Below are positions 13,657 through 22,622 of a stretch of DNA of 64,000 nucleotides, in pieces. The first letter of the stretch is position 1. Every line of letters begins with the position of its first letter. The stretch covers positions 1,664,001 to 1,728,000 of the forward strand of contig CBDFJF010000002.1 in the NCBI GenBank assembly GCA_965248265.1, in the 5' to 3' direction. Below the pieces are notes generated by a model. The model saw only the letters and a program-made list of their open reading frames with translations, was not told the origin of the DNA and did no database searches. Made by a program: the position numbers and the translations under genes. Origin of the DNA: Candidatus Latescibacterota bacterium. Its GTDB lineage: Bacteria; Latescibacterota; UBA2968; UBA8231.

Positions 13657-13729
13657 GCTGGCCGGCGACAAGTACAAAAAAACCATCAGCGCCGGCATTC
13701 CCTGCGAACTCGCCGGGAGACGTCGTCTT

Positions 13730-14665
13730 CTATTCAGCAACGGTACCGTACTTGGTCTGTAGCTGGGAAGGAATCCGGGCGGCGACTTGGAGCTTGAGTT
13801 CGCCCGTGTCTTCGACAAACGGGCGGGCGAGGTATTTCGCCTTGCCACCGATGTGAAGGATGGCGGGATCCGTCTTTCGCGTGGGCAAGCGGATAACGTC
13901 ACCCGCTGTTAGTTGCTCTGCCTCGGCAACGGTCACGGAGGTGCGGCCGAGGACGGCTGTGGTGGGCAGGTCCATGGCACCCACGCGGAGGCGATTTGCA
14001 TGGCGGAGCTCCTCGCCCGTAGCGCCTTGCCGAGGCGGGATGCGGTTTTGTCCAGATTGGTCGAAACTGGCCAGAATCGGCTGTAGGGTCCGGTACGGAT
14101 AGCACATCGAAATCCGGCCCTTCGCATTGGTCGAGTTCACTCCGAAAGCGAGCATGAGGACGATCTCGTTGTCGGGGACGATCGTCATGAACTCGGGGTT
14201 GGTTTCGAGCTCGATATCGTGGACCTCACATTCCACGACGCTCTTCCAGATATCTTCCAGATCCCAGATGGCCTGCCTGATCGGACTGACGAATATGCCC
14301 ATCTCGGTCTGCGATATCTGTCTCGGCTCGACGTCAGAGCCGCACCCCTTGCCGCCGAAGGCTCGATCGACAACCCCGAAGACGATCGGCATCTGGAAGT
14401 CAATGATGACCTGACCGTCATACATATCCTTCGGACCGAGGTGAAACTGATACGCCACACCCGGGTTGGACAGCGACTGGATGAACTCGCGGTAGGTGGT
14501 CTGATCGACAAACTCGATGTCGACATCGACGATCGACCGCATCAGGTTGTTGAAGGAAATATTCAAGAGCCTGGCGAATTCCTCGTGCAGGTTCTGCACA
14601 AACCGCATCTGCGCCTTGTTCATCCTGGCCGGGTGCTTGAAATCGTATTCTATGATCCGACTCAT
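13730..14665 (-). CDS. fliM: FliM-like switch protein (middle and SpoA domains) lacking the N-terminal CheY-binding peptide
   Basis: YDFKHP, HEEFAR, VDQTTYREFIQSL, DRAFGGKG, ETNPEF, CYPYRTLQP, C-terminal SpoA-like domain; ATG14665 overlaps the fliG stop (ATGA). Confidence 0.85.
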   Translation of the reverse strand: MSRIIEYDFKHPARMNKAQMRFVQNLHEEFARLLNISFNNLMRSIVDVDIEFVDQTTYREFIQSLSNPGVAYQFHLGPKDMYDGQVIIDFQMPIVFGVVDRAFGGKGCGSDVEPRQISQTEMGIFVSPIRQAIWDLEDIWKSVVECEVHDIELETNPEFMTIVPDNEIVLMLAFGVNSTNAKGRISMCYPYRTLQPILASFDQSGQNRIPPRQGATGEELRHANRLRVGAMDLPTTAVLGRTSVTVAEAEQLTAGDVIRLPTRKTDPAILHIGGKAKYLARPFVEDTGELKLQVAARIPSQLQTKYGTVAE

Positions 14666-15753
14666 GACGCAGGGTCTCCGTTGTCTTCGTCCGCCCGCGG
14701 CTCTTCCTCTCGCCGGCATCCCAGCTTTCGAAGGACGGCGGCCATTTCAGCCGCCTGAGCATCCATCGCACGCAGGACGTTACGCTCGACCTCGGACGTG
14801 CTCGCTTTGAGGATCTTTGCAGTTACCTGGGTGCCGCCGATTTCTGACCTGCCGGCAACGGCATCTCTGAACGACTCCTCGAGGTTGCTTTCCAGGATCC
14901 TTATCGCGGCTGGTGTCGCTTCGTCAATCGAAGCAATACGGTAGGCGACATCCGATTGCAGTCGTTCCGGGAGCTCGGCGAGGATGGCTCCGGCCTGTGT
15001 GGGTTCGAGTTGGGACAGCAACAGAGCGATAGTCTGGGGGTGTTCGGACACGATCCCGGGTGCAATCTGAGCGGCCGGCACCTTATTGAGGATGGTGAAA
15101 CGCGGACGTGACAGGTCAGCCATCGGCTCTGTGACATGCCTGGCCATGCGCATGCCGCGCGCACGTCTTACGGTTTGGTACGCAAAGTCGACGCCGCCCG
15201 TACGGATCCACTCACGGGCCTCCAGCTGCTGCCCAAAGGTGGCCAGATGCTCCTTCTGCGCTTCAACGGAGACTTGCGGGGTGTCCGAAATCGCTTGCGA
15301 CAGCTCGCAGAGCTCCCCGTAGGGGAAGGTGTCCGGGCCGATGATCTCGGCGGTGACTTGGACGCCCAGCGAAACCAGGACCAGGGCTGCCCGGTGGAAA
15401 TCGGCTCTGCCGTCCTGCCCGTCTTCGAGGGCCATGCTGCGCAGCAGGTGGGCGGCCTCTTCCGGCTGTCGCCAGACCGCCTCGAACACGCTGTCCGCCA
15501 CAATCCAGGCGGGCGCCTGGCGGACCGGCACAGTGCCAGAGGGAGGCTCATCGGCGGTCGGGGCCGGCGCGCCCATCTCGGTGTGGGCCAATCTGGGTGG
15601 CGACTCCGGCAGGGGCGGCAAGCTGGAGAGGTTCTCAACCAAAGGGGGGCGCCACTCCGATACTTGCGGAGAGCCCCCACGTAAGCCGTCAACATCCCCG
15701 AATATCCTCACGTCGATACCATCGGCGGTCGCAGTGTTCATATCGTCCATCAC
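14662..15753 (-). CDS. fliG: FliG-like protein (N and M domains) with an N-terminal extension and no C-terminal torque domain
   Basis: RAALVLVSLG, GGVDFAY, EHPQTIALLLSQL, LPERLQSDVAYRIA, GG linker; ends where MFxF would begin. Confidence 0.8.
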   Translation of the reverse strand: MMDDMNTATADGIDVRIFGDVDGLRGGSPQVSEWRPPLVENLSSLPPLPESPPRLAHTEMGAPAPTADEPPSGTVPVRQAPAWIVADSVFEAVWRQPEEAAHLLRSMALEDGQDGRADFHRAALVLVSLGVQVTAEIIGPDTFPYGELCELSQAISDTPQVSVEAQKEHLATFGQQLEAREWIRTGGVDFAYQTVRRARGMRMARHVTEPMADLSRPRFTILNKVPAAQIAPGIVSEHPQTIALLLSQLEPTQAGAILAELPERLQSDVAYRIASIDEATPAAIRILESNLEESFRDAVAGRSEIGGTQVTAKILKASTSEVERNVLRAMDAQAAEMAAVLRKLGCRREEEPRADEDNGDPAS

Positions 15754-16019
15754 TTGGGTGGGAAAAGCCGGGTGACGCGCAAGGTGAGCTGCTCCTCGCG
15801 GACATCGATGTCACCCTCGCCGCAAAGCTGGTCGTTGATGCGATAGGCGTACTGCTGTCCGGCGAGCATGTCCACGGCGATCACATCGCCAGCGTGCAAA
15901 GCCCGGGCTCGCTCGAGCGGCATCAAAGCGCGGCCGAGCTCGACGACGAGATCGACCTCGACATCCAGCAGATGGTTGAGGTTGGTGTGCTGAAGCGTTG
16001 AAATGGCGGTGTCAGTCAT
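15750..16019 (-). CDS. Divergent FliN/SpoA-family protein
   Basis: LLDVEVDLVVELGR...LHAGDVIAV...INDQLCGEGDI; 4-bp overlaps with both neighbours. Confidence 0.75.
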   Translation of the reverse strand: MTDTAISTLQHTNLNHLLDVEVDLVVELGRALMPLERARALHAGDVIAVDMLAGQQYAYRINDQLCGEGDIDVREEQLTLRVTRLFPPK

Positions 16020-16312
16020 GAGACGATCTCAGTGAGCCGTACGCCGAAATTCTCATCGATTGTCACCACTTCACCGCGGGCGAACAGTTTGCCGTTGAGG
16101 CGGACATCGACCGGTTCGCCCATCATCGTATGGAGGCTCACGAGTGACTGCTCACCGATGTTGAGGGCCTCATCGAGGGTCATGCGATGGCGGCCGATCT
16201 CGACCGAGACCTCGACATCGACCTCGTCGATCCGCGAATCCTTGTGAACGCTCTTTGCGGATGGCCGGGTGTCCCCCTTCGGGGCTGCCTTTCTCTTCGT
16301 TTTCGTTGGCAT
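16016..16312 (-). CDS. fliN: Flagellar switch protein FliN-like
   Basis: VEVSVEIGR...GEPVDVRLNGKLFARGEVVTIDENFGVRLTEI; RBS AGGAG. Confidence 0.88.
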   Translation of the reverse strand: MPTKTKRKAAPKGDTRPSAKSVHKDSRIDEVDVEVSVEIGRHRMTLDEALNIGEQSLVSLHTMMGEPVDVRLNGKLFARGEVVTIDENFGVRLTEIVS

Positions 16313-16329
16313 TTCTCACTCCTGTTGAT

Positions 16330-16770
16330 TCATGAGCTTGAGGCGTAACCGCTCGACCGACGGGTCCCGACAGGGAATAGATTAGGCCGGATCCGGATGC
16401 CGCCGTGCTCCCTGACATCGTCCTCGGCGGCCGGCCACTCCGTCTGCGCAATGTCCCGACGCATTTCGTCTACAGTCTGCCTCAGGATCTGCACCTCACT
16501 GGCGAGACCCTTGATCATGAGCGCCACATCTTCCAGCGTCAGCGACGGTGGATCCTGTCGCAGCTGCTGTTCGATGCTGGTCCACAGTTCCTCCCGCGCG
16601 GCACCGCTGCGCAGGGAGGTTGCTGCTTCCCATGTGACCTGATGCGACTCGTACTCCGTTCGGCAGCTCTCGCACTCACTCAGGTGAGTTTCGAGCTCGA
16701 CTCGTTCGTCATGGGACAGTTGGTCGTCGACGTAGGCTGACAGATTGCGTTCGCACGAATAGCAGTTCAT
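16330..16770 (-). CDS. zf-HC2 (ZAS) anti-sigma factor, soluble, with a coiled-coil C-terminus
   Basis: MNC...LSAYVDDQL...ETHLSECESC (HxxxCxxC); no hydrophobic TM segment; heptad-like LEDVALMIKGLASEVQILRQTVDEMRRDI. Confidence 0.85.
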   Translation of the reverse strand: MNCYSCERNLSAYVDDQLSHDERVELETHLSECESCRTEYESHQVTWEAATSLRSGAAREELWTSIEQQLRQDPPSLTLEDVALMIKGLASEVQILRQTVDEMRRDIAQTEWPAAEDDVREHGGIRIRPNLFPVGTRRSSGYASSS

Positions 16771-16783
16771 CTCTCTTACGACC

Positions 16784-17347
16784 TCATGCATCGAGATAGG
16801 GTTTGATAGCATCACGCACGCGTTTGCGCGCCCGGTGGATCCGGACTTTTACCGCGTCCTCGCTGCACGAGAGGATTTCGCCGATCTCCCGGTAGGCCAT
16901 TCCGAGCTGTGTGCCCAGAACGAAGACGAGGCGCATGTTTTCAGGCAGAGCCGCGATAGCGGCCTCGGCTTTCTTGGCCATTTCCTTTTGTATGAGCTGA
17001 TCTTCCGGGTTGGCCCCTCGCGCCATGGGGATGCTCTTCTCGGCGACCGTCTCGAGAGAAGAGAATGCAGGCCGCCGCTTGCGTGCCTCGGCCATGCAAC
17101 GGTTCGCTGCGATGCGGTAGAGCCAGGTCCCAAAAGCAGCCTCCGCGCGGAACGAGCCGATGCTCTTGAATGCCTGGATGAAGACCTCCTGGGTCAGGTC
17201 TTCGGCATCCTGATCGTTAGGTGCCATGTGGGTGCACAGTGAGTACACACGGTCCCGGTACAACTCGAAGACCCTGCGAAAGGCGCGGTTGTCTCCCTGC
17301 TGGCAGGCGGCGATGAGGGCGATGTCGGCGTCGTTTGACAAATCCAC
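16784..17347 (-). CDS. ECF RNA polymerase sigma factor (sigma-70 group 4)
   Basis: Region 2 DAEDLTQEVF...FGTWLYRIAANRC; region 4 YREIGEIL...VKVRIHRAR. Confidence 0.93.
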   Translation of the reverse strand: MDLSNDADIALIAACQQGDNRAFRRVFELYRDRVYSLCTHMAPNDQDAEDLTQEVFIQAFKSIGSFRAEAAFGTWLYRIAANRCMAEARKRRPAFSSLETVAEKSIPMARGANPEDQLIQKEMAKKAEAAIAALPENMRLVFVLGTQLGMAYREIGEILSCSEDAVKVRIHRARKRVRDAIKPYLDA

Positions 17348-17377
17348 TGCTCAAGTCAGTCTGGCATTCACAGAGTT

Positions 17378-17405
17378 TAGACGCAGAAAATGGCTACAGG
17401 TAACA
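17378..17405 (-). promoter_or_regulatory. Putative ECF-type promoter TGTTAC-N16-CGTCTA upstream of the sigma gene
   Basis: Minus strand reads tgttac-ctgtagccattttctg-cgtcta, ending 30 bp before GTG17347; resembles the ECF -35/-10 pattern (AAC...CGT) with one mismatch in the -35. Confidence 0.5.
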
Positions 17406-17633
17406 GGAAAATATGGCAAATGTAAGAGGGGCCCCTATCGCTACGATCTCGTGGGAGATGGCTGGCAACTACGGATGCGCCAGCTCTCGGAAGCTGGCTA
17501 CGCTTTTCTCGGCGCTGAGTATTCTCATCACGATCATATCAGACTATCATTTGTACGGACCTCAGTGTCAATGCGATTCGCATGGTGCTGAGGGTAGGCC
17601 ACGCGTCCGTGGATAAGTGGAACGAGAGACTCG

Positions 17634-18461
17634 GTGAACGATCAAATGCCCCCGCGTTTTAGAATACCTGCCTCGGTGTGGATCCTGGTATTACTGACAC
17701 TTGGCACCGTGCCTGCCAAAGCGCAAGGTGATTCGGCGGATGTGGACTATGATCTATTCCTCGGCACCATGGTGGATGATCCGGACAGGGCCGGCTCAGC
17801 ACCGTATCACCTGTGGCAGGTAGTCAATGACTCCTCAATCCCAGTCCAGTTTTCAGCCGCGGTCGGGTCGGTCTGGTCAGATCTCAGTCAATTGGACGCA
17901 GATCCGGCCACGCCTATCAATCTGCGGTTGGGCCGAAAGAACCGACTCGAACTCGGCGGTCGGGTAGACGGGGCGCTCACGGCCGGCGATGTCACCGGGT
18001 TCACCGTGGGCATGAAGCATCAGATTCACCGCTACTTCGCCTGGGGAGTGAACGTGCAGAAGGAAGATCAAAACGAGCGGGTGGGAGAGAAAAGCAGCAG
18101 GGGTTACGGCGGATCTTTCGTGTTCATCGCGAATGAGAATCACTTCCTGGGAACACCCATAGGTATGAAGTACAAATTCGGGGTCGGGCTCGGTGACGCG
18201 ATCAGCGCACGCGGTGCCGCCCTGAGATTGGCGCTGGAAGGCCGCAGCGACGTATCTGAATCGACGGATATCATCGGTGGTCTCAACGGGCGCGCTGTCA
18301 GCAGGGACTTCACGGACAATCTTGGGGTAGACGGCTTGCTCGGGACAGAAACCAGGTTGAGTGGCCCTCTGGCTTTACGGATCCTGATCGGTTTCGGCCT
18401 TGCCGGTGACGCCAGCCAGGACAACGCGCGAGGCAGTCTGTTTTTGACCTACGAGCGATAG
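17634..18461 (+). CDS. Secreted hypothetical protein, possible outer-membrane beta-barrel
   Basis: Signal peptide ending AKA; alternating amphipathic strands; C-terminal GSLFLTYER. Confidence 0.55.
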   Translation: MNDQMPPRFRIPASVWILVLLTLGTVPAKAQGDSADVDYDLFLGTMVDDPDRAGSAPYHLWQVVNDSSIPVQFSAAVGSVWSDLSQLDADPATPINLRLGRKNRLELGGRVDGALTAGDVTGFTVGMKHQIHRYFAWGVNVQKEDQNERVGEKSSRGYGGSFVFIANENHFLGTPIGMKYKFGVGLGDAISARGAALRLALEGRSDVSESTDIIGGLNGRAVSRDFTDNLGVDGLLGTETRLSGPLALRILIGFGLAGDASQDNARGSLFLTYER

Positions 18462-18622: not shown

Positions 18623-19087
18623 TCAGGACGAGGATTGGCTTTGCAGTAACTCGCCGATGCGCCGATTCGATGCGACCAGTTTCTGACGAAGACTCATCAT
18701 TACGTTGCGGTATAAACGAGTGGCTAACGAAGGGTCTTCCTGCATCAGTTTGAAGAAGGCGCGGCGGTTGATGCCCAGGACCGAGAGCGCTGTTTCGGCT
18801 ACGACCGTGGCCGATCGCGGCTCGCCCGTCAACATCCCAGCTTCGCCTACTGTGGTGATGGCCGATTCGCTCACAAGCGGCACATCGCGCTCAGTACGGA
18901 TTTCGACCGTTCCGGAAAGAAGAACAAACATCCGGTCGCTTTCAGCGCCGGCTCTGCAGAGGACGGTCCCCGGTTCATGGCTCTCTTGCTGGCAGATGCC
19001 GAGCAGTTGCTTTAGTTGACTCGGGGACAGGTCCGCGAATAGCGGCACCTTCTGCAAGGCCAGCAGCACAGCCGATTGCTTACCCAT
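18623..19087 (-). CDS. Stand-alone cyclic-nucleotide-binding domain protein
   Basis: LQKVPLFADL, MFVLLSGTVEI, VGEAGMLTGEPRSATVVAET; no HTH. Confidence 0.88.
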   Translation of the reverse strand: MGKQSAVLLALQKVPLFADLSPSQLKQLLGICQQESHEPGTVLCRAGAESDRMFVLLSGTVEIRTERDVPLVSESAITTVGEAGMLTGEPRSATVVAETALSVLGINRRAFFKLMQEDPSLATRLYRNVMMSLRQKLVASNRRIGELLQSQSSS

Positions 19088-20606: not shown

Positions 20607-22622
20607 ATGTCTCAATTCTATCTCGACGGTTTACCAACCGCGGGTCGTCCAGGTTTTCGCAGACTCCTGCTCTCCTTGTTGATTCCTTTCTCCGTGACCG
20701 TGACTGCCTTCGGACAGTCGGTTCCAGATCAGTATCTCGATGGAATCGTTCTCGATGAACCGCTGCCGTCGCAGTTTGTCACCGGCCAGACGTATTGGGT
20801 CAGGGGCAGCCTCGAGAATCAGGGGATTCCGGCCATGACGTTCGCCTTCGCTTCGGAACGAGGGGTCCTTGAGCACCGGATTGTCGTCGCCAATGGGCGT
20901 TTCGAGCACCCGCTGGTCTTCAAGCACGCTGATGCCGGCCAGCATGACTTCCGCATCACTTTCTTTCCCAGGGGACAGCAGTTCTTCACCTCGGAAATAT
21001 TCCGCGGGATCGAGATCGTCGAAGGGACAGGCGAGATTGATACGCCATCGGCCTATTACGACGGCTTCATGGACACTGCCTACTTCCGACCCAACGCGAT
21101 GCTCGTTGATGCTGTCGAGTATCCGCCCCTATTCGTCACGACTGGTGGAAGCGTGGAAAGCGTCCTGGTTCTGGTTCCGGACGGCCACGGTGGACGCCTG
21201 GAACGGGAGCTGTTGGACGACGGCATGGATGGGGATCTCCGGGCCGGAGACGGGATCTTCACGATGACGGGTGAGCCCCATCGTCCTCCGGACGTGGACA
21301 TAGGGCCGTTCGGCAGTATCACCCTTGTCGTCGTTTTTCAGGATGCAACAGGGACGGATTTTCAGTTTACTGCCGAATGCGGTCTGGTCGGCGGCGAATT
21401 ACCGATGGTCCAGAAACTGAGTGACGATGCCTATCGGACAGATCACGCGGTCAACCTCGTCGACGACGGAACCCTGTTCGTGTTGAGTCAGCCCTTTGTC
21501 GATCTTCGCGCGATCGCTACTCGTTTCTATGAATACTTCGACGACGACTACGATTTTCTCGCCGTCCGCTCGGCTCTCCCACTGAGCAACGGTGCGCACG
21601 GATTCAACCGCAGCGTTCGCAACGACGTCAGCGGCATCGGTGTCCCCCTGTTCGACGAAACCGCGGAATTCGGCAGCGACGGACGCCTGCAGAGCGCCAC
21701 CTTCATCAACTTTCGTCTGCTGGGGCCGTTGGTTCACGAGCTCGCTCACAACTGGGCAAACTTCCTCGTTCCCTTTGGTGGTCTGTTCTGGAATGGCCAC
21801 TGGGGGGTGTCCGATGTCCAGGGAGTACTGGGAGGCAACGCCACCTTCATCAGAGATCTGGGCAATGGGGAATACGCCGTCCCCAGCAACGCAGGATCAT
21901 CATCCTGGGGGGGCTTCTATTCGATGATCGAACTCTACCTGATGGGTCTGGTAGGGGCGGAGGAGGTGCCCCCACATCAGGTGCTGATCAATCCCAGCAT
22001 CGTTCGCTTCGACGACTTGCAGGGCCTTATCGTGGCCGCGGACCGACTGGATACCATCTCCATCGGAGAGGTCATCAACGCCCACGGCCAGCGGTCGCCC
22101 TCTCACGAGGATACGCCCAGGGAATACCGGATGGCGACGGTGGTTATTTCGGACCGTCCGCTCACACCCGTGGAACTGACCTACCACGACCGCCAGGCCG
22201 AGTGGTTCGGTTCGGACAACAACAGCATTCACGCCTTCGCCGCGGCAACGGGCTTTCGGGCGACCGTCGACACGCATCTGCCGCCGTCGATTACCGCTGT
22301 GCTCGACGATGGGTTCGCGACTGCAGCGGATGGGTTACCGGGAACGAGCCCCGAACTGGAGCAGAATTATCCCAATCCGTTCAACAGCAGCACCATATGG
22401 CGTTACAGGTTGAACTCGACAACCGTGGCGACGCTGGATATCTACGCGGCGAATGGACAACGGGTAAGGAGAATCCCTCAAGGTCGCAGGGCAGCCGGGT
22501 ACTACACAATCAACTGGGATGGGACCGACGACGACGGCCATTCGCTCGCGACCGGCGTCTACATAGCCCGCCTGGCAGCGGGTGATGTCGTGGTCAACCG
22601 GAAGCTGACACTGTTGCGCTAG
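20607..22622 (+). CDS. Secreted zinc metallopeptidase-like protein with a C-terminal FlgD-Ig/T9SS-type domain
   Basis: Signal peptide; HELAH followed by GHWG; LLDDGMDGDLRAGDGIFT repeat-type motif; QNYPNPFNSST...WDGTDDDG...KLTLLR. Confidence 0.8.
   Translation: MSQFYLDGLPTAGRPGFRRLLLSLLIPFSVTVTAFGQSVPDQYLDGIVLDEPLPSQFVTGQTYWVRGSLENQGIPAMTFAFASERGVLEHRIVVANGRFEHPLVFKHADAGQHDFRITFFPRGQQFFTSEIFRGIEIVEGTGEIDTPSAYYDGFMDTAYFRPNAMLVDAVEYPPLFVTTGGSVESVLVLVPDGHGGRLERELLDDGMDGDLRAGDGIFTMTGEPHRPPDVDIGPFGSITLVVVFQDATGTDFQFTAECGLVGGELPMVQKLSDDAYRTDHAVNLVDDGTLFVLSQPFVDLRAIATRFYEYFDDDYDFLAVRSALPLSNGAHGFNRSVRNDVSGIGVPLFDETAEFGSDGRLQSATFINFRLLGPLVHELAHNWANFLVPFGGLFWNGHWGVSDVQGVLGGNATFIRDLGNGEYAVPSNAGSSSWGGFYSMIELYLMGLVGAEEVPPHQVLINPSIVRFDDLQGLIVAADRLDTISIGEVINAHGQRSPSHEDTPREYRMATVVISDRPLTPVELTYHDRQAEWFGSDNNSIHAFAAATGFRATVDTHLPPSITAVLDDGFATAADGLPGTSPELEQNYPNPFNSSTIWRYRLNSTTVATLDIYAANGQRVRRIPQGRRAAGYYTINWDGTDDDGHSLATGVYIARLAAGDVVVNRKLTLLR

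Follow-up and report, generated by a model that had tools for sequence, protein, structure and literature searches.

In the bacterial flagellar motor, FliG normally depends on FliF both for the folding of its N-terminal domain and for its placement on the motor. The contacts involved have been described in detail (PMC7355467): FliG_N folds together with the C-terminal tail of FliF into a unit that resembles FliG_M, it is by way of this shared unit that FliF templates the FliG ring, ARM_C stacks on FliG_M, and the stators are contacted mainly by a charged helix of FliG_C. Engineered fusions of FliF to FliG assemble into C rings and support motility (PMC7355467). In the Campylobacter jejuni FlgS/FlgR checkpoint, activation of a histidine kinase and of a sigma54 activator depends on both FliF and FliG (PMC3760246). 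Here we analyse a stretch of 64,000 nucleotides (the window) from a Candidatus Latescibacterota bacterium (assembly GCA_965248265.1, contig CBDFJF010000002.1, positions 1,664,001 to 1,728,000 of the forward strand), in which one gene encodes a FliG paralogue, here called FliGx, that carries FliF-like helices of its own and stops short of the torque subdomain. We read FliGx, with a probability of roughly two in three, as a FliF-tail-fused, torque-less FliG paralogue in a C-ring-like scaffold that is free of MS ring and stators and probably regulatory. Firmly supported within this reading are the FliF-tail fusion, its predicted completion in cis, the loss of the stator contact at the MFxF hinge, and the existence of a conserved and diversified cluster family apart from the flagellar genes; from these we infer independence from the MS ring, the lack of stator contact in the cell, assembly with the neighbouring FliM and FliN, and any link to an anti-sigma factor.

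FliG_N in FliGx has the motif RAALVLVSLG at residues 121-130 and is preceded by an extension of 119 residues that includes AVWRQPEEAAHLLRSMALED (residues 92-111). The genome has a single full-length FliF (C2:4116108-4117625, 505 amino acids, ending '...PETPHDIILSRVQQMVRERPEDAAKLIRTMLVEDTA'), and when its last 45 residues were compared with 50,082 open reading frames (ORFs) of at least 50 amino acids, the best non-self match was FliGx 79-111 (blastp E 0.066, 39% identity over 33 residues, ungapped), with a kinase-fused paralogue in fourth place. A hidden Markov model (HMM) of 24 FliF tails from other genomes recovered two proteins in this genome and nothing else, FliF itself (4e-29) and residues 84-112 of FliGx (E 0.076). 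The same FliF-like motif stands before FliG_N in 15 further FliG paralogues, which makes 16 fused FliGs from 11 genomes in all. Aligned as a profile against 25 FliF tails with hhalign, the 16 N-terminal extensions matched with 98% probability and an E-value of 3.1e-13 over 36 columns reaching the FliF C-terminus, as against E 0.024 for the reversed FliF alignment and E 0.029 for the best of 30 column shuffles. Judged by these comparisons, residues 81-112 of FliGx are homologous, beyond chance, to the two C-terminal helices of FliF.

Structure prediction places these helices on the FliG_N of the same chain. AlphaFold2 was run on FliGx with a 51-sequence alignment (A1) of FliGx, its orthologue, fused paralogues and canonical Latescibacterota FliGs, and gave a mean predicted local distance difference test score (pLDDT) of 78. 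Within residues 81-110 the score is 96, 94 and 90, with helices at 89-95 and 97-109, and it falls below 50 in the first 14 residues, at 57-63 and in the tail. The top Foldseek matches of this model are Salmonella FliG in C-ring structures (8wo5, 9n49, 8umd; E ~2e-7). A second model, of residues 69-217 (149 residues) built from the 16 fused sequences, has a mean pLDDT of 86, 92-95 in the FliF-like part and a predicted template modelling score (pTM) of 0.71. VIA-align aligns its residues 18-20 to 116-118, FliF-like helices included, as one domain with FliG C-terminal domains (4fhr_B, Z 9.6, root-mean-square deviation 2.5 Å, 86 residues aligned; 1qc7_B, Z 9.4) and, over the same range, with the middle domain of Salmonella FliG (8umx_B, Z 8.5, 22% identity); in solved FliF:FliG complexes, by contrast, the chains of FliG_N cover only model residues 43/49 to 113/117 (5tdy_B, Z 6.7; 5wuj_B, Z 6.5). 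The FliF-like helices and FliG_N are predicted to pack into one FliG_M/FliG_C-like domain within one chain. This agrees with what is expected of a FliF_C:FliG_N pair in cis, since FliG_N and the FliF tail form a FliG_M-shaped domain in the motor, and a direct link in cis is compatible with the fold because engineered fusions build functional rings (both PMC7355467). A complex prediction between FliG_N (113-215) and the FliF-like peptide (70-112) scored 0.38 against 0.32 for the control and counts neither way on binding.

A sequence-only reading of this stretch had proposed a FliF-C-like helix directly before FliG_N, behind a Pro-rich linker, and had left its packing to structure prediction. 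The helix is borne out by blastp, by the FliF-tail HMM and by hhalign with its controls; residues 56-80 are Pro-rich; and the segment packs with FliG_N in the AlphaFold2 models (pLDDT 90-96), where it is aligned as part of one domain. The helices might instead act in trans, either on the FliG_N of a neighbouring subunit, in a domain-swap polymer, or on the flagellar FliG, as a decoy drawing it off FliF. Such a role would suit a segment so near the organism's own FliF tail, with its 39% identity over 33 residues, and domain-swap polymerisation in the FliG family is the subject announced in the title of Baker et al. 2016 (cited in PMC8956890). We nevertheless consider it very unlikely: about eight residues separate helix 2 from FliG_N, the monomer model puts the helices on the same chain (pLDDT >90, pTM 0.71), and engineered direct FliF-FliG fusions work in cis (PMC7355467).

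At its other end FliGx lacks the torque subdomain. Pfam recognises FliG_N at residues 121-209 (55 bits, cut-off 25) and FliG_M at 228-297 (80 bits), with no match to FliG_C (PF01706) in the protein. FliGx keeps the invariant columns of alignment A1 (E237, H238, P239, Q240 and R272), the Gly-Gly pair at 306-307 and ARM_C; then, with MDAQAAEMAAVLRKL at residues 330-344, it ends in '...VLRKL GCRREEEPRADEDNGDPAS', at columns where its relatives read 'VRNLMFVFxD' and continue for about 100 more residues. Since the chain ends at the MFxF hinge, FliGx is without the C-alpha1-6 subdomain and its stator-contact helix; the loss is confined to this subdomain, with the ARM_C half of the C-terminal domain retained. 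The model for the FliG equivalog (TIGR00207, NCBIfam) gives FliGx 131.7 bits against a cut-off of 226.7, matching positions 13-234 of 338, compared with 345.5 bits for a stand-alone FliG paralogue of this genome and 270.8 for another fused FliG (cluster B, below).

This truncation does not look like an error of sequencing or annotation. The stop codon of FliGx (TGA) overlaps the ATG of the downstream fliM (ATGA), and its start (GTG/ATG) overlaps the stop of the upstream fliN (GTGA). A torque-subdomain HMM made from 46 rows of A1 had no hit in any of the six frames across the full window (best score -4) and gave 141 bits at a control paralogous locus (L022). Given these overlaps and the null search, the truncation is real and clean, with no frameshift. 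A frameshifted or displaced torque domain is ruled out by the six-frame search, and a mis-called N-terminus by the conservation of the first 55 residues in the closest relative (P0002) and by the overlap of the start with the fliN stop. The sequence-only reading had taken FliGx for a FliG without a torque domain and had suggested a look for FliG-C in other frames. The absence of FliG_C, the stop at the hinge column and the like ending of P0002 uphold the former; the latter yielded no FliG-C, the fliM start codon lying on the FliGx stop.

Close relatives are few: a search of 5.8 billion clustered proteins returned two, P0002 and P0003, and a search of metagenome contigs with FliGx found none. 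P0002 (360 amino acids, 68% identity) matches FliGx in architecture, in its N-terminus and in its 'LGCRRE' end. Between the two, identity is 72% both in the FliF-like helices and in FliG_N and reaches 81% in FliG_M, and it is 52% in residues 1-40, 42% in residues 41-80 with the Pro-rich linker and 40% in the tail. P0003 was set aside as an orthologue, being likely an assembly chimera (446 amino acids, on a metagenome contig of 2.4 kb) in which a xylose-isomerase-like part (AP_endonuc_2) is followed, from within the FliF-like helix ('EDAAHLLRSM...'), by near-identical P0002 sequence. A contig of a second strain, from another study, spans positions 13712-17400 of the window with 115 substitutions and no indel, a divergence of 3% over 3.7 kb. 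With its overlapping neighbours, the conserved ends of P0002 and the indel-free second strain, FliGx is, on present sequence evidence, a real gene and not debris.

Torque-less forms of the fused protein recur. A profile of the FliF-like segment plus FliG_N (A2), searched against 1.84 billion representatives, returned 5,015 proteins at E <=0.001. Among the best 150 of these, 40 carry the FliF-like segment (local HMM, E <=0.01): 21 are full length, 11 torque-less, one is a kinase fusion and seven are fragments or have no recognisable EHPQ. The 11 torque-less representatives (FliGx, as P0001, included) end 94-128 residues after EHPQ, which places their ends at the hinge or close to it, in short polar tails. 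On a quick maximum-likelihood tree of 55 rows, from which fragments and P0200 (no EHPQ anchor) were left out, the torque-less state requires seven changes, and well-supported branches make at least five of these unavoidable; FliGx and P0002 (support 100) group with the distant torque-less P0123 (Shimodaira-Hasegawa-like approximate likelihood ratio, SH-aLRT, 88). Some of the truncated representatives may be sequencing artefacts, P0173 for instance being very near a full-length protein. P0123 has no close orthologue in 168 Latescibacterota genomes (best match 48% identity, to canonical FliGs). A further homologue search with A2 returned 57 proteins, mostly canonical FliG, and served poorly as a census; FliGx residues 1-118 reached a best score of 0.75 in a protein-cluster atlas (to FliG_N clusters), below lead level. 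Ahead of its linker FliGx carries a further motif, in residues 14-55, with no family match; it recurs in other loci and representatives (L025, L027, L028, P0111, P0123, P0128), and pLDDT is 79-84 over residues 31-50.

FliGx is encoded far from the flagellar genes. The genome (7.3 Mb) has one FlhA, one full-length FliF and nine FliG paralogues; its flagellar cluster runs from fliF to fliH with no fliG alongside, and on contig C2 about 2.4 Mb separate fliF from the FliGx gene, which has no flagellar neighbours. Six of the nine are full-length FliGs that stand alone amid unrelated metabolic and housekeeping genes (L107-L112). The other three have the FliF-like extension, and each lies beside its own FliM and two FliN, in clusters that we call A (that of the window), B and C. 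The FliG of cluster C is a protein of 1031 amino acids in which the FliF-like helix, FliG_N, FliG_M and ARM_C are joined, at the MFxF position, to a HisKA-HATPase-REC module; this type recurs in three other genomes (G150, G098, G094), with response-regulator-PP2C genes (REC-SpoIIE phosphatase) nearby, and in the histidine-kinase fusions of sister clusters the junction falls at this hinge too. It is common for genomes of this family to have several FliG matches. The genome also has a partial FliF paralogue (C1:81594-82226, 71% identical to FliF residues 227-439, within an open frame of 368 amino acids) and a FliM fragment (C1:92988-93380).

In the window, FliGx is the fifth gene of a six-gene operon on the minus strand, which reads, with overlaps or tiny gaps, extracytoplasmic function (ECF) sigma factor, anti-sigma factor, FliNb, FliNa, FliGx and FliM; no terminator-like site was found inside it. 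The sigma factor scores 106.8 bits with TIGR02937 (sigma70-ECF, NCBIfam; cut-off 42.9). On reading its translation, with no predictor used, we see no membrane segment in the anti-sigma factor. Both FliN fall below the NCBIfam fliN cut-off of 84.05 (FliNb 77.1 bits, FliNa 46.6), and the counterpart of FliNa carries a formylglycine-generating enzyme (FGE)-sulfatase domain in G095, in G094 and in cluster C. FliM scores 191 bits with TIGR01397 (cut-off 219.6; model positions 32-308); the flagellar FliM and a stand-alone FliG of this genome pass their equivalog cut-offs. The window FliM begins at the FliM domain and lacks the LSQxEIDxLL motif that binds phosphorylated CheY, also in the longer upstream ORF, and this motif is present in the flagellar FliM of the genome and in the cluster FliMs of G095 and G042. 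A promoter match lies upstream of the sigma gene, but such matches are no commoner than chance would give (2 sites against 1.7 expected).

The gene order sigma, anti-sigma, FliN, FliN, fused FliG, FliM recurs in four other Latescibacterota genomes (G157, G161, G093, G095), with a variant in G042; together these account for 5 of 19 loci scanned besides the window (L084, L086, L087, L089 and the variant L095). In all five genomes the operon is headed by a sigma orthologue (E 1e-54 to 1e-87) followed by an anti-sigma orthologue (E 1e-33 to 1e-40). In the G042 variant, FliM carries a receiver domain and FliG an internal FGE-sulfatase. Fusions of these two kinds, with the receiver on the N-terminus of a FliM paralogue and the FGE-sulfatase inserted after the N-terminal motif of FliG and ahead of its FliF-like helices, are listed in the table. 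The G039 cluster has as neighbours a small MotA_ExbB-like ORF, a Reg_prop/Y_Y_Y-SpoIIE protein and a FliG_C-only protein.

We propose that the fusion of the last two FliF helices, through a Pro-rich linker, in front of FliG_N would complete within the single FliGx chain the 'split domain' that the motor makes from FliF_C and FliG_N. FliGx retains FliG_M, with the EHPQ...R motif that binds FliM, and ARM_C, which stacks on the FliG_M of the neighbour in rings. It would then assemble with FliM and the two FliN into a C-ring-like structure, no FliF ring being needed for nucleation, and this assembly would be unable to receive torque from MotA/B: a scaffold rather than a motor part. From established FliG biology, FliGx should not need, and probably cannot use, an MS ring; it should get no torque; and it could polymerise with FliM and FliN. 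The regulatory role is a guess from the gene neighbourhood and from the signalling domains on sister scaffolds. We propose it because the operon has a sigma/anti-sigma pair of its own at its head and because sister clusters add a histidine kinase, a receiver and FGE-sulfatase domains. A bolder and rather doubtful idea is that the switch complex of Latescibacterota has become a free-standing cytoplasmic signalling device, in which FliF-tail capping of FliG would free the ring or array from the membrane ring and the cooperative FliM/FliN/FliG switch would have as its readout at the MFxF hinge, in place of stators, a histidine kinase or a sigma/anti-sigma pair. The window operon would then be the minimal core, and FliGx a pure scaffold whose assembly state would control a soluble anti-sigma factor.

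Several observations weigh against the scaffold reading. The single-sequence (0.066) and FliF-only-profile (0.076) E-values are modest, and it is the family profile alone that is strong; the packing in cis rests on AlphaFold2 confidence and alignment ranges. The FliGx operon has no obvious input, its FliM lacking the CheY box, and no output domain. All five recurring operons have a full-length FliG, and the syntenic orthologues in four other genera, 33-36% identical to FliGx, are full length, so the truncation is a derived state of the FliGx lineage; as they keep the torque domain, the ancestral module may use it and the FliGx copy may have lost function. Full-length close orthologues would have told against the sequence-only reading; the only close one, P0002 at 68%, is torque-less. 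In the second strain, among 40 of the 116 differences, six of the eight substitutions that fall in the final 54 codons of FliGx alter the amino acid and two are silent, which suggests relaxed constraint on ARM_C and the tail.

Taken together, such points could describe a decaying remnant, a duplicated switch module that is shedding the torque domain of FliG, the CheY box of FliM and the FGE domain of FliN, with FliGx functionless. The full-length orthologues of G157, G161, G093 and G095, the loss of input and output parts at once, the six residue changes out of eight, and the scores of FliGx, FliM and both FliN below the equivalog cut-offs all fit this picture. Decay is nevertheless hard to reconcile with six intact ORFs coupled by overlapping stops and starts, with the absence of indels at 3% divergence over 3.7 kb, with the same ends retained in P0002, and with conservation of 72-81% in the FliF-like helices, FliG_N and FliG_M against 40-42% in linker and tail. 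In FliM, among the differences listed, 17 codons changed silently and 13 changed the residue, and the torque-less form is shared by 11 of the 40 fused representatives, FliGx grouping with the torque-less P0123. We therefore consider that FliGx is unlikely to be a remnant.

The last point concerns the flagellum itself. Each of the ten other genomes in which a fused FliG was confirmed has a FliF match as well, so that a function at the flagellum, or on its behalf, could be imagined. FliGx, FliM and FliN might enter the flagellar C ring or compete for it, as a brake, clutch or assembly regulator upon release of the ECF sigma factor. FliGx has kept the FliM-binding motifs and ARM_C, that is, the parts that make ring contacts, and the genome sets nine FliG paralogues against a single FlhA and a single full-length FliF with no fliG beside it. 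Yet the cluster has its own FliM and two FliN and therefore looks like a complete, separate set; the fused FliF-like helices are predicted to fill the groove by which FliG attaches to the MS ring; and the window FliM, without its box for phosphorylated CheY, would have no part in switching. A modulator of the motor strikes us as improbable, and we retain the scaffold free of MS ring and stators as the better account of FliGx.

Outside the operon, the window holds upstream of it a small cyclic-nucleotide-binding protein (Pfam cNMP_binding; 18623-19087, minus strand) and an ORF of 275 amino acids without Pfam match (17634-18461, plus strand). A 671-amino-acid ORF (20607-22622, plus strand) has a C-terminal end that, from its translation read by eye, we take to resemble the C-terminal sorting domains of type IX secretion.

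Table. Coordinates of the FliGx gene, its parts, its operon and related loci (window positions unless a contig or locus is named).
Feature	Position	Strand	Basis or remark
FliGx: FliF-C-like helices, FliG_N, FliG_M and ARM_C, no torque subdomain	14662..15753	-	363 amino acids
N-terminal motif RxFG...W.PP...PLPPPPR, residues 14-55	15589..15714	-	common to the fused-FliG family
Pro-rich, weakly conserved linker, residues 56-80	15514..15588	-	pLDDT 51-54
Two helices homologous to the FliF C-terminal tail (from profile comparison), residues 81-112	15418..15513	-	
FliG_N domain, residues 120-215	15109..15396	-	Pfam PF14842
FliG_M domain, residues 216-300, EHPQ(237-240)...R272	14854..15108	-	Pfam PF14841, 80 bits
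Gly-Gly linker (306-307) and ARM_C, residues 301-344, to MFxF hinge position	14722..14853	-	alignment A1; model helices 308-343
Short acidic/polar tail replacing the torque subdomain, residues 345-363	14665..14721	-	alignment A1; pLDDT <50
ECF-type sigma-70 factor, first operon gene	16784..17347	-	Pfam Sigma70_r2 and Sigma70_r4_2
zf-HC2 anti-sigma factor	16330..16815	-	Pfam zf-HC2 at residues 18-52
FliN paralogue b, 98 amino acids, SpoA domain only	16016..16312	-	Pfam FliMN_C, 75 bits
FliN paralogue a, 89 amino acids, SpoA domain only	15750..16019	-	Pfam FliMN_C, 51 bits
FliM paralogue, 311 amino acids from ATG at 14665	13730..14665	-	Pfam FliM and FliMN_C
Sigma-70-like promoter match (weak), upstream of sigma gene	17543..17571	-	10/12 hexamer matches
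Stand-alone FliGs	C1:710486-711529, C1:265586-266641, C1:1502012-1503193, C2:750807-751862, C1:384404-385618, C1:1704317-1705429		
Cluster B	C2:272854-275667		full-length fused FliG
Cluster C	C1:357620-363151 (L023:5620-12676)		sigma54 response regulator, FliM, FliN, FliN-FGE-sulfatase fusion, FliG-kinase
REC-FliM / FGE-FliG fusions	L095:2732-4222, L095:5620-7686 (G042); L091:6068-8209 (G039); L097:379-2460 (G044)		

FliGx would be a natural counterpart of the FliF-FliG fusions made in the laboratory, and it suggests a route by which a C ring could be uncoupled from the flagellum. The fused family offers ready natural constructs for structures of membrane-free FliG rings, such as the domain of residues 75-215 or a FliG that stops at the MFxF hinge. 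The presence in relatives of a kinase at this same hinge, or of a receiver on FliM, suggests that the switch complex serves gene regulation in a way not yet described. In that case an ultrasensitive motor switch would have found a second use as an amplifier of signals, an idea that could be tested with few proteins. In the open full-text literature (papers behind paywalls were not covered) we found no account of FliG paralogues capped in nature by a FliF tail, of FliGs without a torque domain, of FliG fused to a kinase, or of switch operons linked to a sigma factor.

Among known proteins, canonical FliG (TIGR00207) has in common with FliGx the FliG_N and FliG_M domains, the EHPQ...R motif, the Gly-Gly linker and ARM_C. 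FliGx differs from it in having no C-alpha1-6, an N-terminal extension of 119 residues, a score below the cut-off and a non-flagellar neighbourhood. A precedent for a FliG-like fold outside the flagellum is the N-terminal domain of MgtE (MgtE_N), which matches FliG_M of FliGx below the cut-off (E 0.0078), MgtE structures being also among the weak Foldseek matches; MgtE, however, lacks FliG_N and FliF-like helices and has neither FliM nor FliN as a partner. There is a structural likeness to the FliF_C:FliG_N split domain of the motor (5TDY, 5WUJ; Lynch et al. 2017, as cited in PMC8956890 and PMC7355467), in which FliF-tail helices are paired with FliG_N as they are predicted to be in FliGx. There, two polypeptides are involved, whereas in FliGx a single ORF provides both parts, with no membrane or ring-building region ahead of the FliF part. 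The engineered and spontaneous FliF-FliG fusions of Salmonella and Vibrio (PMC7355467, PMC6079021, PMC10941966) likewise join the C-terminus of FliF to the N-terminus of FliG, but they combine a whole FliF ring with a whole FliG and drive a flagellum, in contrast to the ~32 FliF residues of FliGx and its lack of a torque subdomain. Finally, the C. jejuni checkpoint resembles the clusters described here in that rotor proteins are tied to the control of transcription: it does so with a separate kinase and a true flagellar rotor, where the window operon has an ECF sigma/anti-sigma pair and no kinase, and where cluster C fuses the scaffold itself to a kinase beside a sigma54 regulator.

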